Positions 7,742-57,984 of a DNA stretch of 64,000 nucleotides are shown piece after piece. The notes beneath the pieces were generated by a model. That model was not told the DNA's origin and ran no database searches. It was given only the letters and a program-made list of their open reading frames with translations. Numbering within the stretch: position 1 is the stretch's first letter; each line of letters begins with the position of its first letter. The stretch is taken from NCBI RefSeq assembly GCF_054482595.1, contig NZ_CM137008.1; one strand, written 5' to 3'. Both the position numbers and the translations under genes were made by a program.

Positions 7742-8722
7742 ATGCGCAAATATCGTCTAAGTGAAGAACAGCGAGCCTTTAGTTATCAGGAAGATGGCAC
7801 TAAAAAAAATGTGTTATTACGGCAGATTATCGCCATTAGCGATTTTAACGATGTGATAGCAGGAACCGCTGGCGGCTGGATCGATCGCGAAACGGTGTTA
7901 GCACAGGAAGGAAATTGCTGGATTTACGACCAGAACGCTATTGCGTTCGGCGGAGCGGTGATTTCCGGTAATACGCGCATCACCGGCACCAGCGTGCTGT
8001 GGGGAGAGGTTTACGCAACGGATAATGTCTGGATCGATAATAGTGAAATCAGCCAGGGTGCATATATAAGTGACAGCGTCACCATTCATGACTCACTGGT
8101 TTGCGGGCAATGTAGAATATTTGGTCACGCCTTAATTAATCAACATTCTATGATCGTCGCAGCACAAGGCTTAACGCCTGACCATCAACTCCTGCTACAA
8201 ATTTATGATCGCGCAAGGGTTAGCGCCTCGCGTATTGTCCACCAGGCACAAATTTATGGCGATGCCGTCATCCGGTATGCTTTTATTGAACATCGTGCCG
8301 AAGTTTTTGATTTTGCCAGTATTGAAGGTAATGAAGAGAACAACGTCTGGCTATGCGATTGCGCTAAAGTCTACGGTCACGCGCAGGTGAAAGCTGGCAT
8401 AGAAGAAGATGCCATTCCAACGATTCATTACAGTTCGCAGGTGGCGGAATATGCCATTGTGGAAGGTAATTGTGTGTTAAAACATCATGTCTTGATTGGC
8501 GGAAATGCCGTGGTACGTGGTGGACCGATTCTGCTCGACGAGCACGTTGTAATACAAGGTGAGAGCCGTATTACAGGTGCGGTGATAATTGAAAACCATG
8601 TGGAGTTAACCGACCACGCCGTCGTTGAAGCCTTTGATGGCGACACGGTTCATGTCCGTGGTCCAAAAGTCATTAACGGCGAGGAGCGCATTACGCGAAC
8701 GCCGCTGGCAGGGTTATTATGA
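7742..8722 (+). CDS. ydcK: Uncharacterized protein YdcK (hexapeptide-repeat-like)
   Basis: 326-aa ORF; 3' end overlaps rimL 3' end by 6 nt (convergent). Confidence 0.8.
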
Positions 8723-9253
8723 ATCGATAATACGCGCGTATAAGTTCACATCATCATAGGCATCATTCAGGAACTCAGCCTGTTTCAGGCAACCTTCAAG
8801 GATAAAACCATTGCGCAAAGCGACCTGGTTGCTTTGCGGATTGTCCACCCGACATTTGATCACGAAGCGTCTAAGTTCACCAGACTGGGCGTAATGATGA
8901 ATCAATGCCTGCAGCGCCTGAGAAATGATCCCCTGCCCCTGATGAGATTCGTCCAGCCAGTAGCCTATTTCAGCGGTTTTATTCAGTGGTTCAATACGAT
9001 TAAACGAGATAACGCCGATAAGTTCATCTTCTTTGAAAATCATGAACATTTTGGCATAGCCGCGTTGATGCAACATCACATTACCCTGCACCGTTTTTCG
9101 CGTGTCCTCTTCACTCTGAACGAACTGCGGCCAGTTTAGCGACTGCTGTAACCAGGTTTTATTTTTACAGATTAACTGATAAAGAGGAGTGACGTGATTT
9201 TCTGCAACAGCATGTAATTCAAGTGATTCGCTTACTTTTATCGTTTCAGTCAT
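8717..9253 (-). CDS. rimL: Ribosomal-protein L7/L12 serine N-acetyltransferase
   Basis: Track ORF trimmed to [16 protein letters not shown]...; GNAT-fold sequence. Confidence 0.85.
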
Positions 9254-15787: not shown

Positions 15788-16016
15788 CGACTAAAAGCCT
15801 CTTTGCGTCACATTTTTACAACAATTATTGCAGAGAAGATTAATGCCATTGGAATGAAGAGAGTAACGAATGGTTAAACTGGCTAACCCGAATGACGAAA
15901 AATTCTGGAAAACAGCACGCAATTTCGTCAGGTGATTATTTTCGTCCCTAAGGAAACCACATAGGATGCTCACGGGTGCCTGAGACTTTCTGTTTTCAGG
16001 CTAACCGGGAATCAGA

Positions 16017-16061
16017 AAGACGAAGGCCCCGACCGATATTTCTATCAACCGAGGCCAACGA

Positions 16062-16072
<11 letters not shown>
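16017..16072 (-). ncRNA. sokB: sokB antisense RNA of the hokB/mokB locus; position inferred, boundaries approximate
   Basis: Placed antisense to the mokB translation-initiation region by analogy with hok/sok architecture; no independent sequence recognition. Confidence 0.35.
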
Positions 16073-16269
<197 letters not shown>

Positions 16270-16684: not shown

Positions 16685-16748
16685 CTTCCGATGTAGACCC
16701 GTATTCTTCGCCTGTACCACGGGTCGGTTTTAGTACAGGCGTTTTCTT
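16685..16748 (+). ncRNA. rydC: RydC small RNA (Hfq-dependent, pseudoknot-forming)
   Basis: 64 nt CTTCCGATGTAGACCCGTATTCTTCGCCTGTACCACGGGTCGGTTTTAGTACAGGCGTTTTCTT matches the RydC sequence as I remember it; ends in hairpin plus U-tract. Confidence 0.8.
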
Positions 16749-34190: not shown

Positions 34191-37100
34191 TTAGAACGTT
34201 TTCTTAAAGTTCAGCATCACGCCTTTGTCGCTGATGCCGTCCTCTTTCCAGTGATACGCATCCAGATTCAGCGAACTTTCTTTGCTACTGTACTTCACGC
34301 CGACGCTCGCCAGGCTGTTGATACCGCCGCCCTTCTGACCGTCATCGACGTTAAAGTGCTGGCTGCCTGCCCCTGCAAGGCTTGCCGTGCGCTGGCTCTT
34401 GCTGTAGCTCAGGTTCGGCCCGCCTTCCAGCGTCGCATTCGCGCTCCAGCCGCCTTTCCCTGCGTAGTCCAGTTTCAGCCCGACGATGCTGTCCACCGCC
34501 GTTTCGCTGCCACTGTTCATATTCAGGTTAAAGTCTCCGGCATTGCGCTCCTGATAGCCACCTTCCAGTGTGTGACGCAGTTTTACACCCGCATATGGCG
34601 TAACCTTCAGTCCTTCGCTCGGTTCGAAAGTCTTCGCCACTTCGCTGCGGAACTCCAGGTACTGCTGCTTCACGTCGGTATCAGCCGTTTTGTTTGTGTT
34701 GCTAAATGCAATCGAACGGCTACTGTCAAGGTTGTGAACGTCATAACGCAATGCGTTATTCCAGTTCATGCCGTTGTCGAAGGACATCTGGTGCTTCAGG
34801 CCAAAGAACTGGCTATAACCACCTGTGACGCCATTATCACCCGCTTTCTGCGCACCATCACCATCGAGACGAGCGATACCGTACTCCAGACTCATCGTCT
34901 GGCTTTCGCTCAGGTCGATGGTTTTACGCAATGCCAGCATGTCGTATTCGGTATTATTACCTAACTCGGCACGTGGATCGCCTTTCGCAACAACGTTGAA
35001 CGCCAGACCGTTACCCACCTTCGGCGCGGCATCCGCCAGCATGCTGAAGCGGTTGCTTAACACACGCGCTTCACGGAATACCGTGGTCGCCTGGCTACCG
35101 CTCACCTGCTTCAGGGCGCTATTCAGTTCAGCAGTGGTGCCCACGTTCAGGCTGGTATACAGCTCGTTATTGGTGTAACCCGCATCCAGTGCCTTCGCCA
35201 CATCGTTCACCGAAGCATCGGTCGCCACATCGGTGTAGGCGTTTTTGCTCATGATGACGTCAACGTTGCCGCTGGCATCGGTGCTGCCTTTGGCGGTCCA
35301 TACCACGGACGTTGAGGTGATGGCATCGGCGTCGGTCAGGTTGATGCCTTCCACCACGTTGTCGAAACTGACCGTGGTGTCTGCCGTACCGGCGGCGAAA
35401 CCGGTGTTGATCCCGACACCATTCATGCTGGCGTTGTTAACCTTCAGTTTACCGGCGCTGCCGTCAACGTTGGTACCGACGATATAGCCGTTGAGGTTGT
35501 TACTGCTGCCATCGCTACTACCGCTATCAGTCGTTTCACTGAAAGGTGAAGTGGTGTAAGTGTTTGGCATGTCCGGCAACGTGTAGTCGGTGTAATGCAC
35601 TTCGGTATTGTTACCGCTGTTGCCGTTCACCCCTTCCACATTCACGCTGTCGCCCTGCTTAATCAACCCCGAACCAGTCACGCCGTCGGCAATCACCACC
35701 GTACCGTTGTTAACGATATGACCTTCTGTGCCCAGTACGCTGAACGCAAACGAGTCGTTAGCAAAAATATTGATCGTGCCGTTGTTCTCAATTACCGCAT
35801 CGGCGGTGGCATTGGCATCCAGTTGCATACCAGTCAATCCGGTATCGGTGGTGCCTTCGGTGCCGAGATTGATAACGCCGTTGTTAACCAGTTGTGCGTT
35901 TTTATCACCTTCCATCGCCACGGCATTGTTGCCGCTGATGTTCATCACGCCATCGTTGAGGGCAACATAGTTGTTGTGGGTGAATTTAACTGCGCTGGCG
36001 TTGTCTTTATCGAAGTTAATCACCCCGCCATCCTGGTTCCACAGGAAGGCATCGCTTTCTGTCGCACCAGCGGTACTTACCGCCACAGTGACTTTCGCAT
36101 CCACCACGCCCTTGTTAATAAACTGGCTGGCGCCGTCGTCATAGTGAATAGCGCCCGCGCCAAGTGCGGCATCCAGCGTCATTTCACCGGTGTTATATAA
36201 CGTGGCGTTAGCATTGCTTCCCTGGAAGCGAATGGCGTTTTTACTGTTATCAAGGATGAGCTTGCCGCTGTTGTTGAACGTTGATTGGTCGTCAATATCC
36301 AGCGTCCCGGCATTGTTATTTTCATCCTGATAACCCATTTTCCAGGTCCCCGCGTTATTCACCACCGCAGAGTTATAGAGAATGGCACCTTTACGCGCCT
36401 CGCCGCCTGCAAGGTTATTGAATACAGCATCGCCCTGGGCGTTAACGCGCGCCGACGCGATACCGCTGTTATTCACCGTGCCATCGTTAAGCTGTAAGGT
36501 TGACAGTGAACCGGTATTATTAATTACCGCGTTGCTGTTTTTCTCAATTTTTACGACGTCATTAAGCGTTCCGTTGTTATTGAAGGTTCCTCCTTCCAGA
36601 GTCACCGTGTTCAATACACCTTCATTGGTTAACGCACCGCCTTCATTCACGACGATGGCTGAGCTAATGGTTCCGCTCGACTCGTTAACCAGCGCACCAT
36701 TTTCGAGTATCCTGATCGTTCCATTTTTAACAGCACCCGCACTGGTGACATCCCCGTTGATAATCGCACCTGACGATAATAATACGGTCTCACCCGCAGA
36801 ACTTAATACATCGCCATCATCATATAAATCGGCAATATAATTATCCGTTGGATTATATTCATCGGCCCCCTGGCAAACGCCAAAGGTACAAATTGTGCCA
36901 TAGTTGATAATAAGCCCAGTGCCATCGTTATAGAATGCCTGACCATTTTCCGCGTTAATGTTGATTACGCCTGTCTGGTCATTAATGGCGGTGCCTTCGT
37001 GATAAACCGCCATGCCGACGAGTTTATTCACACCGAGAGAATCGTTGTAATTTTCATTTTTCTCCAGGTTGATGGTTCCCTGGTTAATGACCGTATTAGT

Positions 37101-40085
37101 ATTCCCATACGCCGCCATCCCCGCACCGGCGTTGTAGACAGTAATCACACCATTCTCGTGGTTGGTTGCCGTGGCTTTAGTTAATGCCCCATTATAGGCA
37201 TCGGTACCTGAAGCCATTCCCACACCGAAATCTTTCGCCGTGCTATTTGCAACATTATTACGCAGCGATGTTTCATCATTTTCATCGACCCACAGCGTAT
37301 CCAGGGTGATTTGCCCTTCGTTATCCGCGGTTGATTTATCGATAGCCAACATCCCCACGCTGCCACGACCATACATCTCAATAATACCCGTTTCGCCGTT
37401 CAGAATGGATGACGAGTAGCTGGCAAGCATACCTGTCAGCCCTAATGCCTTGTTATTGAAAGAGGTACCATCAGACAAGTTCCACTCTGCCGGATAATTC
37501 AGCACACTGTGCTGATTCATCATTTTGGTGGTCATGGTACCATTGTTAACGCCAATCCCACCGTATTCAACGTCAAAGACTTTTGGTGCCGGGTCGGTAC
37601 CAAAATCGTACATCGCCAGGCCAATGGATCCGTTATTGATTACCGTTGAATCTTTATTCCAGGCAGCCGCAAAACCGATATTTTTCAGTTCCACTTCACC
37701 GTTGTTTGTCGCCTTCGCACCAGAATCAATACTAATGGTGGATAACGCTACACGATAATAATAAGTGAAAGAATCCACATCACTCATATCAAACGTTGCG
37801 TCAGCGCCAATCTCCAGCTCCGCGCCATGGCTCAACTGAATGAGATTTTCGAACCCCAGCGGGAACTCGCCGCTGATGGTTGACTCACCATTCAGGTAGA
37901 CCGAGGAATGCCCATCAACGTTAATAAGCGGTGTGTCTCCGATACCACGACGAGATGCGGCAGGTTTTGAGCCATCATCCATGACATTTTTTTCACCGAC
38001 AAAATGAACACCGCCATTAAGCGTAAAGGTATTGTCATCGCCAGCAATAACAATACCCGCAATGTGTTCCTGAGCACCGTCGTAACTCGCATAGGAACGC
38101 GACGTGGTTTCACTATCAGCAACAACGGTTAACTGACCATCCAGCGTGACGTCGTTGTTGTCACCGCTGATATTTACCCCGGTTGAGGGATTAAAGAAGT
38201 AAGGCTGCGCATTATCAGCTTTCTGATCTTTATCAACCAGAATACTGCCCGCTATTTCGATAGTATTACCATCACCCGAAACATTAACACCTGTCGCTTC
38301 TTGCCCTGTCACATTCAGCCCATAAGTCGACAGCGTCATGTTGTTATTATCACCAGAGACATCAAGACCGGTGGAGAAATCCCCAACGTCTAACCCGCCC
38401 GCAAGTGAAATATTGGCTTTATCGCCTGCAACGCTGATACCGGTTCCGGCGTTGGTCGCGGTAATATCACCAACGTTAACAAATGTCGCATTATTACCGT
38501 CGATCTGAATGCCGATTGCATTTTCACCTGTAGCGGCCTGACCAACATTGAGGTCACCCATGTTGATCACGCTGACACCATCACCATCAAGCAGCATGCC
38601 GATAGAGTTTTCCTCGACGACCGTAATATTACCTTTGTTGCTGACGAACGTGTTGTTGCCGACAACGTCAATACCGTGCGCACCGCCGCTAACGTATAAG
38701 TCGCCTTCCTGTTTGATGATGGCATCGTCACCGACAACTTTCGAGCCAGTGGAATTCGCACCGTCAACGGTCATAGTACCTTTATTATCAACCCGCGCAT
38801 TATCGCCATTGATAAGGCTACCCGTACCGCCATTGGTGATGGTCGAGTCGCCCGCAGTGTTTAGCTTGGTATTATCGCCATTGATGATTACCGCGGTACC
38901 GCCATCAACTTCCGTCTCGCCATTATTGTTAATGGTGATATTGTCGCCGGTGAGTATACCGACAACCGAGCCTTCTCCGATGGCCGTCGTTTTGCCGTCG
39001 TTGTTGAGGGTGATGTTGTCACCATCAACCGTCATGACAGTACCGCCATTCAGCGCCGTGTTGCCGCCCTGATCGGTGATGATCGCGTTACCAAACTCAA
39101 TCGCATTCCCGGTTGTGCCGTCAACAACGACGCCGGCCTCTTTAGTGATGTGGATGAGTCCATCATCGTCGTAACTCCAGGTGATGCCACCTGAGGTATT
39201 TACGCCATCAAAGACAACGGTGTTGCTGTCGTCATGGACTGTCCAGGACTTAACTATCGTCTCCTTGCCCTCAGGCGCCGTTAAGGTGTAGCTCCCATCG
39301 GCATTTTGGCTGTAGGTAAAGGTGGTTTCGCGAATTTTGACGGTTTTCGCGTCCTGATCCCAGGTTACGTCATTTTTATAGACGACAGGATCGTGTTTAA
39401 CCGGGGTATCGCCACCATCGTCTGGCGGAACAGGCGTATCACCGCCGTCGTCTGGAACTGGCGTATCACCGCCATCATCTGGTGGAACCGGCGTATCACC
39501 GCCGTCATCTGGTGGAACCGGCATATCACCGCCGTCATCTGGCGGAACTGGCGTATCACCGCCGTCATCTGGCGGAACTGGCGTATCACCGCCGTCATCT
39601 GGCGGAACCGGCGTATCATCGCCGTCATCTGGCGGAACTGGCGTATCACCGCCGTCATCTGGCGGAACTGGCGTATCACCGCCGTCATCTGGCGGAACCG
39701 GCGTATCACCGCCGTCATCTGGCGGAACCGGCGTATCACCGCCGTCGTCTGGCGGAACAGGCGTATCACCGCCATCATCCGGAACTGGGGAGTTATTATG
39801 GTGGTGATTGTCATCGTCACTTAAGGTATATATAGCAATTCCCGTAGCTACTGCAGCAAGACCTGCAGCTGCCCATGGTAAAACTGCACTATCTTTATTT
39901 TCTCTGCACTCCGCGGATAAATTTTCTAGCTGCTCTTTGCTCAGGGAATGAATATTTGCCGGACATGTTATCTTACTGGACTTACGTGTTTTTTCGGTTG
40001 AGTCGGGTATTGAAGTATCCGCAGCCCATGTCTGGCTACTTAACGCCATGGCAACACAAACAGACAATAATTTTTTCCTTTGCAT
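34191..40085 (-). CDS. ydbA: Giant autotransporter (type Va) YdbA, uninterrupted: signal peptide, Pro/Asp/Gly-rich decapeptide repeat stalk, beta-helical passenger, C-terminal beta-barrel ending in Phe
   Basis: Track ORF 34191..40124 trimmed to MQRKKLLSVCVAMALSSQTWA (SD AAGGA 8 nt upstream); passenger full of GxNxT/GDNxxV beta-helix repeats; terminal ...VMLNFKKTF. Confidence 0.85.
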   Translation of the reverse strand: MQRKKLLSVCVAMALSSQTWAADTSIPDSTEKTRKSSKITCPANIHSLSKEQLENLSAECRENKDSAVLPWAAAGLAAVATGIAIYTLSDDDNHHHNNSPVPDDGGDTPVPPDDGGDTPVPPDDGGDTPVPPDDGGDTPVPPDDGGDTPVPPDDGDDTPVPPDDGGDTPVPPDDGGDTPVPPDDGGDMPVPPDDGGDTPVPPDDGGDTPVPDDGGDTPVPPDDGGDTPVKHDPVVYKNDVTWDQDAKTVKIRETTFTYSQNADGSYTLTAPEGKETIVKSWTVHDDSNTVVFDGVNTSGGITWSYDDDGLIHITKEAGVVVDGTTGNAIEFGNAIITDQGGNTALNGGTVMTVDGDNITLNNDGKTTAIGEGSVVGILTGDNITINNNGETEVDGGTAVIINGDNTKLNTAGDSTITNGGTGSLINGDNARVDNKGTMTVDGANSTGSKVVGDDAIIKQEGDLYVSGGAHGIDVVGNNTFVSNKGNITVVEENSIGMLLDGDGVSVINMGDLNVGQAATGENAIGIQIDGNNATFVNVGDITATNAGTGISVAGDKANISLAGGLDVGDFSTGLDVSGDNNNMTLSTYGLNVTGQEATGVNVSGDGNTIEIAGSILVDKDQKADNAQPYFFNPSTGVNISGDNNDVTLDGQLTVVADSETTSRSYASYDGAQEHIAGIVIAGDDNTFTLNGGVHFVGEKNVMDDGSKPAASRRGIGDTPLINVDGHSSVYLNGESTISGEFPLGFENLIQLSHGAELEIGADATFDMSDVDSFTYYYRVALSTISIDSGAKATNNGEVELKNIGFAAAWNKDSTVINNGSIGLAMYDFGTDPAPKVFDVEYGGIGVNNGTMTTKMMNQHSVLNYPAEWNLSDGTSFNNKALGLTGMLASYSSSILNGETGIIEMYGRGSVGMLAIDKSTADNEGQITLDTLWVDENDETSLRNNVANSTAKDFGVGMASGTDAYNGALTKATATNHENGVITVYNAGAGMAAYGNTNTVINQGTINLEKNENYNDSLGVNKLVGMAVYHEGTAINDQTGVININAENGQAFYNDGTGLIINYGTICTFGVCQGADEYNPTDNYIADLYDDGDVLSSAGETVLLSSGAIINGDVTSAGAVKNGTIRILENGALVNESSGTISSAIVVNEGGALTNEGVLNTVTLEGGTFNNNGTLNDVVKIEKNSNAVINNTGSLSTLQLNDGTVNNSGIASARVNAQGDAVFNNLAGGEARKGAILYNSAVVNNAGTWKMGYQDENNNAGTLDIDDQSTFNNSGKLILDNSKNAIRFQGSNANATLYNTGEMTLDAALGAGAIHYDDGASQFINKGVVDAKVTVAVSTAGATESDAFLWNQDGGVINFDKDNASAVKFTHNNYVALNDGVMNISGNNAVAMEGDKNAQLVNNGVINLGTEGTTDTGLTGMQLDANATADAVIENNGTINIFANDSFAFSVLGTEGHIVNNGTVVIADGVTGSGLIKQGDSVNVEGVNGNSGNNTEVHYTDYTLPDMPNTYTTSPFSETTDSGSSDGSSNNLNGYIVGTNVDGSAGKLKVNNASMNGVGINTGFAAGTADTTVSFDNVVEGINLTDADAITSTSVVWTAKGSTDASGNVDVIMSKNAYTDVATDASVNDVAKALDAGYTNNELYTSLNVGTTAELNSALKQVSGSQATTVFREARVLSNRFSMLADAAPKVGNGLAFNVVAKGDPRAELGNNTEYDMLALRKTIDLSESQTMSLEYGIARLDGDGAQKAGDNGVTGGYSQFFGLKHQMSFDNGMNWNNALRYDVHNLDSSRSIAFSNTNKTADTDVKQQYLEFRSEVAKTFEPSEGLKVTPYAGVKLRHTLEGGYQERNAGDFNLNMNSGSETAVDSIVGLKLDYAGKGGWSANATLEGGPNLSYSKSQRTASLAGAGSQHFNVDDGQKGGGINSLASVGVKYSSKESSLNLDAYHWKEDGISDKGVMLNFKKTF
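39401..39790. repeat. Tandem array of about 13 units of a 30-bp repeat (one 27-bp unit) inside ydbA, encoding PPDDGGDTPV
   Basis: ggcggaacYggcgtatcaccgccgtcatct repeated head-to-tail in exact 30-nt register from 39481 to 39780 with degenerate flanking units. Confidence 0.9.
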
Positions 40086-40492
40086 ATAAAATTCCTTAGA
40101 TCTAGACCGTGCGTAACAAGCCATGCAGAATTTGAAGATAAATCGTAGTAAATATTCATAGTGAAATAAGCAATAAAGAAATGCTTATATAATTCACAAA
40201 ATCAATATTAAAATCAGGCAAGTAAAAGCATACAAAAAAACAGTTGATGGAATTATATTCCACAAAAAACTCACTTCAATCTAAAAATTAACGACAAAAA
40301 ACAAAAACACACTAATAATTCATTGACGCTGCATATATATTTTGTGATTACATATATATTGGTAATGATTTGTTATTTAAGGGAAGGATATATAAGGTTT
40401 TTGTAGAAATACCCACGGTAATTAAGCATGCTAACGTCAGTTTAAATACTGTAAAAGATCATTAATAGATACATTTTGTAGCCAACTATAAT

Positions 40493-43852: not shown

Positions 43853-44842
43853 ATGAAACTCGCCGTTTATAGCACAAAACAGTACGACAAGAAGTACCTG
43901 CAACAGGTGAACGAGTCCTTTGGCTTTGAGCTGGAATTTTTTGACTTTCTGCTGACGGAAAAAACCGCTAAAACCGCCAATGGATGCGAAGCGGTATGTA
44001 TTTTCGTAAACGATGACGGAAGCCGCCCGGTGCTGGAAGAGCTGAAAAAGCACGGCGTTAAATATATCGCCCTGCGCTGTGCCGGTTTCAATAACGTCGA
44101 CCTTGACGCGGCAAAAGAACTGGGGCTGAAAGTAGTTCGTGTTCCAGCCTATGATCCAGAAGCCGTTGCTGAACACGCCATCGGTATGATGATGACGCTG
44201 AACCGCCGTATTCACCGCGCGTATCAGCGTACCCGTGACGCTAACTTCTCTCTGGAAGGTCTGACCGGCTTTACTATGTATGGCAAAACGGCAGGCGTTA
44301 TCGGTACCGGTAAAATCGGTGTGGCGATGCTGCGCATTCTGAAAGGTTTTGGTATGCGTCTGCTGGCGTTCGATCCGTATCCAAGTGCAGCGGCGCTGGA
44401 ACTCGGTGTGGAGTATGTCGATCTGCCAACCCTGTTCTCTGAATCAGACGTTATCTCTCTGCACTGCCCGCTGACACCGGAAAACTACCATCTGTTGAAC
44501 GAAGCCGCCTTTGATCAGATGAAAAATGGCGTGATGATCGTCAATACCAGTCGCGGTGCATTGATTGATTCTCAGGCGGCAATTGAAGCGCTGAAAAATC
44601 AGAAAATTGGTTCGTTGGGTATGGACGTCTATGAGAACGAACGCGATCTGTTCTTTGAAGATAAATCCAACGACGTGATCCAGGATGACGTATTCCGTCG
44701 CCTGTCTGCATGCCACAACGTGCTGTTTACCGGGCACCAGGCATTCCTGACAGCAGAAGCTCTGACCAGTATTTCTCAGACTACGCTGCAAAACTTAAGC
44801 AATCTGGAAAAAGGCGAAACCTGCCCGAACGAACTGGTTTAA
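43853..44842 (+). CDS. ldhA: Fermentative D-lactate dehydrogenase (NAD-dependent)
   Basis: 329-aa ORF MKLAVYSTKQYDKKYLQQVNE..., NAD-binding GVIGTGKIG. Confidence 0.95.
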   Translation: MKLAVYSTKQYDKKYLQQVNESFGFELEFFDFLLTEKTAKTANGCEAVCIFVNDDGSRPVLEELKKHGVKYIALRCAGFNNVDLDAAKELGLKVVRVPAYDPEAVAEHAIGMMMTLNRRIHRAYQRTRDANFSLEGLTGFTMYGKTAGVIGTGKIGVAMLRILKGFGMRLLAFDPYPSAAALELGVEYVDLPTLFSESDVISLHCPLTPENYHLLNEAAFDQMKNGVMIVNTSRGALIDSQAAIEALKNQKIGSLGMDVYENERDLFFEDKSNDVIQDDVFRRLSACHNVLFTGHQAFLTAEALTSISQTTLQNLSNLEKGETCPNELV

Positions 44843-44952
44843 TCTTGCCGCTCCCCTGCAATCCAGGGGAGCTGATTCAGATAATCCCCAATGACCTTTC
44901 ATCCTCTATTCTTAAAATAGTCCTGAGTCAGAAACTGTAATTGAGAACCACA

Positions 44953-45375
44953 ATGAAGAAAGTAGCCGCGTTTGTTGCGCTAAGCCTGCTGATGGCGGGA
45001 TGTGTAAGTAATGACAAAATTGCTGTAACGCCAGAACAGCTACAGCATCATCGCTTTGTGCTGGAAAGCGTAAACGGTAAGCCCGTGACCAGCGATAAAA
45101 ATCCGCCAGAAATCAGCTTTGGTGAAAAAATGATGATTTCCGGCAGCATGTGTAACCGCTTTAGCGGTGAAGGCAAACTGTCTAATGGTGAACTGACAGC
45201 CAAAGGGCTGGCAATGACCCGTATGATGTGCGCTAACCCGCAGCTTAATGAACTCGATAACACCATTAGCGAAATGCTGAAAGAAGGTGCACAAGTGGAT
45301 CTGACCGCGAACCAGTTAACGCTGGCGACCGCGAAACAGACATTAACTTATAAGCTGGCGGATTTAATGAATTAA
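44953..45375 (+). CDS. hslJ: Heat-shock lipoprotein HslJ
   Basis: Track ORF (TTG 44941) trimmed to ATG 44953 MKKVAAFVALSLLMAGCVSN... (140 aa). Confidence 0.85.
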   Translation: MKKVAAFVALSLLMAGCVSNDKIAVTPEQLQHHRFVLESVNGKPVTSDKNPPEISFGEKMMISGSMCNRFSGEGKLSNGELTAKGLAMTRMMCANPQLNELDNTISEMLKEGAQVDLTANQLTLATAKQTLTYKLADLMN

Positions 45376-45638
45376 TAGCTGCCACAGCTCCCGGCGGCAA
45401 GTGACTGTTCACTACAGCGTTTGCCGTTGGGTAATGCACACATCCCAATCGCCGTACCATCCAGTTGACGGGCAACAGAAAGCGAACCGCCGATCATTGC
45501 ACAATTTGCTTCTCCACTACTGGACATCGACGCTTTTAAACCTGGCGCTACGTGCGCCGCAGTCGCCTGCTGAACAGGCTCACTACTACACGCCGACAAC
45601 AATAAAGCGGCACCCCCTACCCAAAACGCTGCTCGCAT
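45372..45638 (-). CDS. ydbJ: DUF333-family lipoprotein YdbJ
   Basis: 88-aa ORF MRAAFWVGGAALLLSACSSEP...; 3' end overlaps hslJ 3' end by 4 nt. Confidence 0.8.
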   Translation of the reverse strand: MRAAFWVGGAALLLSACSSEPVQQATAAHVAPGLKASMSSSGEANCAMIGGSLSVARQLDGTAIGMCALPNGKRCSEQSLAAGSCGSY

Positions 45639-45911
45639 CTCTTCTTCCTCTAATCTTCAAGCCAAACGACACCGCCATAAATAATAGGCAGCACAGAGGG
45701 CGGCGTCGAGAGCTGTCCTGCGCGTTGCCCCGCATTTTTACTTTTTTTTGGCTATTTTTTTGCCCTCTGTTTGATCAAAACATTCATTACTCTGATGTGG
45801 GGGACACAAAAGCGAAAATGCAGAAGAAAGCCATTTGCTAAAATTGAAGGATTACTACTGGGCGCGCAGCAATTTCGTGCGCCCCTCATTTGCGCAATGT
45901 AAGGGTGTCAT

Positions 45912-49436: not shown

Positions 49437-49464
49437 ATGCTCTGGATAAGGATTATCCAATTCT

Positions 49465-49500
49465 AAAAAAAAGCCCGGACGACTGTTCGGGCTTGTCTTT
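49465..49500. terminator. Bidirectional intrinsic terminator shared by ydbK (+) and micC (-)
   Basis: Hairpin gcccggacgactgttcgggc flanked by A8 upstream and ttgtcttttt downstream. Confidence 0.6.
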
Positions 49501-49574
49501 TTATATGTTGGAAAATCAGTGGCAATGCAATGGCCCAACAGAAAATAAAATCTGTGACAATAAAGGCATATAAC
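49466..49574 (-). ncRNA. micC: MicC small RNA (porin-mRNA repressor)
   Basis: Minus strand reads GTTATATGCCTTTATTGTCACAGATTTTATTTTCTGTTGGGCCATTGCATTGCC...GCCCGAACAGTCGTCCGGGCTTTTTTT, matching MicC as I remember it; lies between ydbK and ompN. Confidence 0.8.
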
Positions 49575-49801
49575 CCGCGCAGAATAACGTATAGAAAATT
49601 AAAAGTATAATTTTTATTTTGTATGTATTATCTTCGATACATTCACCAGACTTATTATCATTTCAGAGGAATTATTTGATTAAGGTTTTACTTAAGGCGT
49701 AACAAATGATATTTATCAGCTAACTGAACTTCTCCTTTAGGATGTTTTCACTCCCCGAAATGGGGATAAAAGGCAAATAAAATAACTAAAGGATTTATTC
49801 A

Positions 49802-54382: not shown

Positions 54383-54505
54383 CAAAAAAAAGCCGACTCA
54401 TCAAAGTCGGCGTCGTACGAATCAATTGTGCTATGCAGTAATTCAAAAAAGGAAGTAAGACAATATGGAGCGCAACGCCCATCGCTTGACGTTGCATTCA
54501 CCTGC
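54383..54505 (-). ncRNA. fnrS: FnrS small RNA (FNR-activated)
   Basis: Minus strand reads GCAGGTGAATGCAACGTCAAGCGATGGGCGTTGCGCTCC...GCCGACTTTGATGAGTCGGCTTTTTTTT, matching FnrS as I remember it; terminator hairpin 54392-54411 plus U8. Confidence 0.8.
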
Positions 54506-57881: not shown

Positions 57882-57976
57882 CACCGGCGCAGAGGAGACA
57901 ATGCCGGATTTAAGACGCGGATGCACTGCTGTGTGTACTATAGAGTCTGGCGGATGTCGACAGACTCTATTTTTTT
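57882..57976 (+). ncRNA. mcaS: McaS (IsrA) small RNA
   Basis: sigma70-like promoter TTGGCA-N18-TATAAC (57846-57875), transcript ACCGGCGCAGAGGAGACAATGCCGG...TAGAGTCTGGCGGATGTCGACAGACTCTA plus T7; matches McaS as I remember it. Confidence 0.75.
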
Positions 57977-57984
57977 ATGCAGTT

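Follow-up and report, generated by a model that had tools for sequence, protein, structure and literature searches.

Short overlaps between convergent genes are a regular feature of prokaryotic genomes. They involve two real genes on opposite strands that share a few 3′ bases, the stop codons included, and they are created by movement of a stop codon. In a survey of 338 genomes, 3,035 convergent overlaps between well-characterised genes were counted, and the convergent class made up 7% of the overlaps surveyed (Pallejà et al., PMC2478687). For E. coli, 75 convergent overlapping pairs have been reported (Huvet & Stumpf 2014, PMC4161906).

Several mechanisms have been described by which the transcripts of such pairs may end or act on each other. 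Termination by polymerase collision is known for E. coli convergent pairs and needs a stem-loop for positioning (Wang et al. 2022, bioRxiv 10.1101/2022.10.23.513370), and bidirectional intrinsic terminators have likewise been described between convergent genes with minimal spacing (Ju et al. 2019; Wang et al. 2022). Termination of antisense and 3′-UTR RNA is also a recognised activity of Rho (Peters et al. 2012, cited in PMC7815308); Adams et al. (eLife 2021, PMC7815308) mapped 1,078 bicyclomycin- (BCM-) sensitive Rho regions in MG1655, 51.5% of which are antisense to genes. The classic excludon concept adds reciprocal repression of the two partners. Sanmartin et al. (NAR 2025, PMC12288877) listed 165 convergent excludons in E. 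coli MG1655 (their Table 1), a pair being called by ExcludonFinder when its coverage-defined transcript ends overlap in 50% or more of 58 RNA-seq samples. Compared with other neighbours, excludon pairs taken together show greater synteny and less frequent co-expression in single cells, and the support for mutual exclusion in that work is statistical and concerns the whole class.

The window considered here is the whole stretch of 64,000 nt from contig NZ_CM137008.1 (assembly GCF_054482595.1). It is a piece of the E. coli chromosome, reverse-complemented with respect to K-12 MG1655. An earlier note on this DNA had described two convergent pairs with overlapping 3′ ends, ydcK/rimL by 6 nt and hslJ/ydbJ by 4 nt, and both its coordinates and its lengths are exact (Table 1). 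In the first pair, ydcK ends in AGLL* and rimL in ..IIDS*; the two stop codons are adjacent and do not overlap, each lying within the final sense codon of the partner. In the second pair, the stop codons have 2 nt in common. Both convergent overlaps are annotated by RefSeq in K-12 and in other strains. Inside rimL, the codons for YARI (8730-8741) hold a perfect 12-nt palindrome, ATACGCGCGTAT, 8 nt past the ydcK stop; it forms no significant hairpin, and the E. albertii sequence differs there.

Table 1. Features of the two convergent junctions, in window coordinates; Rho regions are from K-12 (PMC7815308), with reads given as upstream/downstream.
Feature	Position	Strand	Description
ydcK CDS	7742..8722	+	326 aa; YdcK beta-solenoid/hexapeptide family; stop TGA 8720-8722
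rimL CDS	8717..9253 (9253..8717)	-	178 aa here, 179 aa in K-12; stop TAA = complement of 8717-8719
ydcK/rimL overlap	8717..8722	both	TTATGA, 6 nt
rimL 3′ UTR (probable)	8604..8716	-	antisense to ydcK 3′ end; C richer than G
Rho region K-12 1499587(+)	8604	-	antisense to ydcK; -BCM 82/20, +BCM 137/144 reads; score 4.3, p=1.5e-8
hslJ CDS	44953..45375	+	140 aa; META-domain lipoprotein; stop TAA 45373-45375
ydbJ CDS	45372..45638 (45638..45372)	-	88 aa; DUF333; stop TAA = complement of 45372-45374
hslJ/ydbJ overlap	45372..45375	both	TTAA, 4 nt
ydbJ-strand transcription (probable)	44807..45371	-	antisense to all of hslJ and to ldhA 3′ end
Rho region K-12 1441889(+)	44807	-	antisense to ldhA; -BCM 80/17, +BCM 77/69 reads; score 4.2, p=1.5e-6
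Rho region K-12 1441748(-)	44948	+	between ldhA and hslJ; -BCM 64/72, +BCM 61/176 reads; score 2.6, p=3.8e-5
Candidate Rho loading region, hslJ read-through	45571..45700	+	most C-rich, G-poor stretch past hslJ; C/G <=3.75
Hairpin, ~18 bp	45390..45432	+	directly past hslJ stop, in ydbJ codons; without U tract; z = -1.46

All four genes are genuine protein-coding genes, as judged from Pfam and PDB matches and from conservation across genera. RimL, an acetyltransferase acting on ribosomal protein L12, aligns from end to end with the Salmonella RimL crystal structures (E=1e-80); YdcK matches PDB 2f9c (7e-142), HslJ matches PDB 2kts (1e-73), and the DUF333 protein YdbJ keeps 80-90% identity across Enterobacteriaceae. 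In both pairs the genes lie on opposite strands and share 3′ nucleotides that include the stop codons. An artefact of annotation or sequencing, for instance an incorrect stop or a gene that does not exist, might be suspected because ydbJ is small and was annotated late, and because alternative starts (TTG 9268 and TTG 44941) appear among the listed open reading frames. The stop codons are unambiguous, however, so the overlaps cannot be produced by a misplaced start codon; the 61-mers spanning the junctions are found in thousands of complete genomes, homologues of all four genes with intact C-termini occur across genera, and structures have been solved for three of the products. The chance of an artefact is therefore negligible, and it is ruled out by the conservation data.

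The genes ydbJ and hslJ are conserved neighbours and both encode lipoproteins, so a fusion of the DUF333 and META domains was looked for. An exhaustive profile search collected 172 relatives; in a small sample of ten long ones, DUF333 was accompanied by Kazal, PD40, PdaC/DUF3298, or cytochrome b5 domains, and no fusion with META was present. Distant YdbJ relatives (P0275, P0296, P0326, and P0359) carry DUF333 in tandem, alongside Kazal-type protease-inhibitor, PD40 beta-propeller, PdaC/DUF3298, or cytochrome b5 domains, and these partner domains may give a hint to the function of YdbJ. Elsewhere in the window, positions 34191-40124 (-) hold a single uninterrupted open reading frame of 1977 aa, presumably corresponding to ydbA, which is an IS-disrupted pseudogene in K-12. 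Strain NT1F34 is annotated with a paa-tynA-feaB-feaR block that does not map to the window.

Tail-to-tail packing is very tight throughout this region. When a RefSeq annotation was transferred onto the window, nine convergent junctions could be mapped, with gaps of 39, 17, -6, 37, -23, 41, 53, -4, and 128 nt. The overlaps of 6 and 4 nt thus fall within a continuum. The 23-nt overlap is a third convergent overlap of the window, between hokB (+) and the small annotated gene yncP (-) at 16247-16269; it adjoins the Sok antitoxin RNA (Rfam match 15974-16125), and yncP-hokB also appears in the excludon list (PMC12288877). A further convergent pair close by, ydcZ (+) and ydcY (-) of strain NT1F34, falls outside the window and has a 0-nt gap, leaving no intergenic space (L003, 2599/2600). 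The ydcK/rimL and hslJ/ydbJ pairs do not differ materially from the short convergent overlaps known from other prokaryotes. The one local detail is that the rimL/ydcK overlap occurs in two lengths, 9 and 6 nt, within E. coli.

The difference between the two lengths is accounted for by a single base. At position 8719 the window has A where K-12 has G, so that the end of ydcK reads TTA TTA TGA here and TTA TTG TGA in K-12. In ydcK the change from G to A is silent (TTG to TTA, Leu326). In rimL the same change converts CAA (Gln179) to the stop codon TAA, and the final residue of RimL is lost; the overlap, which is 9 nt in K-12, becomes 6 nt. The window-type 61-mer has an exact match in 1,910 of 5,263 complete E. 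coli genomes (about 36%), O157:H7 strains included, and the K-12 rimL/ydcK 61-mer in 2,015 of 5,412 genomes. In an evenly spaced sample of 30 matches to the window-type 61-mer, the 11 exact ones name ydcK as the first feature, and rimL comes first in the remaining 19. This order of features was taken as a proxy for the 6-nt allele and the longer K-12-type allele, respectively, a reading deduced from the gene that takes up the larger share of the 61-mer. The genomes of E. albertii, E. whittamii, and the Escherichia clades all have the 9-nt form (TCA CAA TAA/TAG). Since the other Escherichia species are uniform in this respect, the 9-nt overlap is the ancestral state and the 6-nt overlap is derived. 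That about 36% of the complete E. coli genomes carry the truncating allele indicates, in turn, that the last residue of RimL is dispensable.

Gene order around both junctions is kept across Enterobacteriaceae, as rimL><ydcK-tehA-tehB in one case and ydbK-ydbJ><hslJ-ldhA-ydbH in the other. The rimL/ydcK gap (negative values denoting overlap) is -9 nt in Escherichia species, in three Citrobacter species, and in two Enterobacter, -6 nt in the window's allele, -4 nt in Salmonella, +4 nt in K. aerogenes, and +117 nt in K. oxytoca. The ydbJ/hslJ gap is -4 nt in E. coli, where 5,128 of 5,412 genomes share the same 61-mer across the junction, +32 nt in Salmonella, 0 nt in Enterobacter kobei and Cronobacter, and -7 nt in Kosakonia. 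Synteny and tight packing are therefore conserved, but the length of the overlap is not. As this length varies between species and also within E. coli, selection for the overlap itself is argued against, and the varying junctions are better matched by stop codons drifting among expendable C-terminal codons than by selection for one given overlap. In the opposite sense, the 9-nt rimL/ydcK overlap keeps its length in three genera even though the RimL tail has changed, and strong synteny with a very small gap in most genera is also what would be expected of a selected transcriptional coupling.

Some of the compared junctions have features of their own. The 117-nt rimL/ydcK spacer of K. oxytoca (L038, 3086-3202) is GC-rich, contains nested palindromes, and is somewhat REP-like; no terminator motif was found when it was checked for one. 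Strain RMDEC364 (L042, 2102-2799) carries IS1 in ydcH and is otherwise 100% identical to the window over the region. In strain ES1 (L043, 4011-5762) a Tn3-like element stands in the place of rimL and cuts into the 3′ end of ydcK. Insertion of a mobile element at the junction was considered and rejected; the IS1 copy sits in ydcH and not at the overlap, the Tn3-like element truncates the region, and neither is relevant to the overlap.

Signals for intrinsic termination were searched at both junctions. Consensus scans returned one weak site per region, which does not exceed the expectation from shuffled sequences. Folding of about 120 nt past each of the four stops gave z = 0.31, 0.00, -1.46, and -0.67 against shuffles, none of which is significant, and no Rfam family was found at either junction. 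Small RNAs above the Rfam gathering thresholds do occur in the window (Sok, RydC at 16685-16748, MicC at 49457-49577, FnrS at 54388-54505, and McaS at 57883-57978), none of them near either junction. The hairpin directly past the hslJ stop, which lies close to a second one at 45379-45400, was rejected as a canonical terminator because it has no U tract and does not fold significantly better than shuffled sequences. A test for bidirectional intrinsic terminators found no stable GC-rich hairpin at the boundary with a U tract on each strand. Unlike bidirectional terminators between convergent genes, neither pair has a GC-rich hairpin with A and U tracts at its sides.

Published K-12 data place Rho termination regions within the neighbouring genes. 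The K-12 entries in supplementary file 2 of Adams et al. were placed on the window by alignment (Table 1). On the rimL strand, a Rho region falls inside ydcK, 110 nt beyond the K-12 rimL stop; on the ydbJ strand, one falls 565 nt beyond the ydbJ stop, past all of hslJ. These distances have the coarse resolution of 800-nt windows and refer to one growth condition in K-12 rather than to the present strain. For the opposite directions, ydcK into rimL and hslJ into ydbJ, the same file holds no Rho region. The curated Term-seq tables of Adams et al. give no 3′ end near either junction, and the SMRT-Cappable-seq supplements make no mention of the four genes.

The base composition of the RNA downstream of the stops is compatible with Rho loading. 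The C/G ratio is 1.3-2.5 over 8716-8431(-) and 1.3-3.75 over 45376-45700(+), the excess of C being less marked over 45371-45000(-). Most of the length of each of the four downstream stretches holds more C than G, and an untranslated, C-rich and G-poor stretch of more than 50 nt lies upstream of the termination zone; a composition of this kind has low specificity, being typical of any antisense coding strand as well as of Rho loading sites. Termination takes place inside the neighbour, apparently via Rho, on the two strands with data (rimL and ydbJ, in K-12), and the Rho-terminated transcripts presumably start at the rimL and ydbJ promoters. The BCM-sensitive drops past rimL and ydbJ resemble the known Rho termination of antisense and 3′-UTR RNA; here it is reported for the rimL and ydbJ directions. 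In this regard, the suggestion of the earlier note that the overlaps leave no room for terminators is correct for intergenic intrinsic terminators, as there is no gap and the scans are null. It does not extend to termination as such, which happens inside the coding sequence of the neighbour, apparently via Rho.

A different account of how these transcripts end would be programmed head-on collision of polymerases at a stem-loop on the boundary, as in bidirectional termination (Ju et al. 2019; Wang et al. 2022). The mechanism is on record for E. coli convergent pairs, and two hairpins directly adjoin the stops at the hslJ/ydbJ junction. Nevertheless, ydcK/rimL is devoid of significant structure (z about 0), and the better of the hslJ/ydbJ hairpins does not reach significance. 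Moreover, transcripts of the rimL and ydbJ strands read through for 110-565 nt in a BCM-sensitive manner, which points to Rho rather than to a collision at the boundary, and the low expression of these genes makes encounters of several polymerases unlikely. Programmed collision is accordingly very improbable at these junctions. A further proposal is that each pair is a functional excludon, in which RNase III-cleaved dsRNA or polymerase interference would let each gene suppress its partner, for example through silencing of hslJ by the ydbJ strand. Both rimL-ydcK and ydbJ-hslJ are among the MG1655 convergent excludons of PMC12288877 and share with them the overlap of transcripts in RNA-seq coverage. 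Transcription of the ydbJ strand also appears to cross the entire hslJ gene, the tail-to-tail synteny is conserved across Enterobacteriaceae, and the excludon class as a whole is less co-expressed in single cells. On the other hand, pairs were listed by means of coverage thresholds applied to K-12 rather than to this strain, and an overlap defined in this way does not prove regulation, whereas the classic concept includes reciprocal repression. Validation of dsRNA with p19 failed for convergent pairs generally and is described as not feasible for them (PMC12288877). No published RNase III cleavage or reciprocal-expression data were found for the four genes, and the geometry of the junctions is not conserved, with spacers in Salmonella and K. 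oxytoca. All four genes also have low reads in the BCM dataset (64-82 per 800 nt), and encounters between polymerases should therefore be rare. A functional excludon at either junction is thus unlikely.

The antisense overlap itself, as proposed in the earlier note, is borne out. The mRNAs are complementary at their 3′ ends, and the K-12 excludon calls (PMC12288877) and Rho regions (PMC7815308) agree on this point. Some overlap is unavoidable, since no full-length mRNA can end before its own stop codon; what matters is the reach of the 3′ UTRs. Transcriptional interference and RNase III-dependent co-regulation, which the earlier note had mentioned as consequences, are only possibilities for these pairs, and any regulatory effect by either route would probably be weak. 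For RNase III to act, about two helical turns of dsRNA are necessary. Complementarity of 4-6 nt alone is thus irrelevant to the enzyme, and extended 3′ UTRs alone could matter. A more specific proposal can be made for ydbJ/hslJ, namely, that ydbJ read-through of about 565 nt across hslJ would act as an antisense switch, lowering hslJ via interference or RNase III with Rho setting the strength, and that a weaker version would operate at rimL/ydcK. We regard such a switch as a long shot.

The two junctions are probably ordinary tail-to-tail overlaps in a compact enterobacterial genome, without a dedicated intrinsic terminator, in which Rho stops read-through within the partner gene and the complementarity of the transcripts is a by-product. 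The overlaps would have arisen by small shifts of stop codons, and they would be tolerated because the shared C-terminal codons are dispensable. Each transcript would then pass its own stop and enter the antisense strand of the partner, where Rho would stop the untranslated C-rich RNA after tens to hundreds of additional nucleotides. The complementary 3′ regions would follow from this read-through, and the overlap itself appears to be selectively neutral. The arrangement is ordinary and has already been annotated and catalogued, and the idea of antisense overlap for these pairs has likewise been published.

These junctions yield a clean negative, in that they contain no hidden terminator, RNA element, or misannotation, and the regulatory reading draws solely on a transcript overlap that is necessary in any case. 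Short convergent overlaps are a routine result of genome compaction and matter little. Base 8719 is the one instructive detail: a base change can be silent in one gene and yet introduce a stop into the gene that overlaps it, and this one has spread to about one-third of E. coli genomes at no apparent cost.
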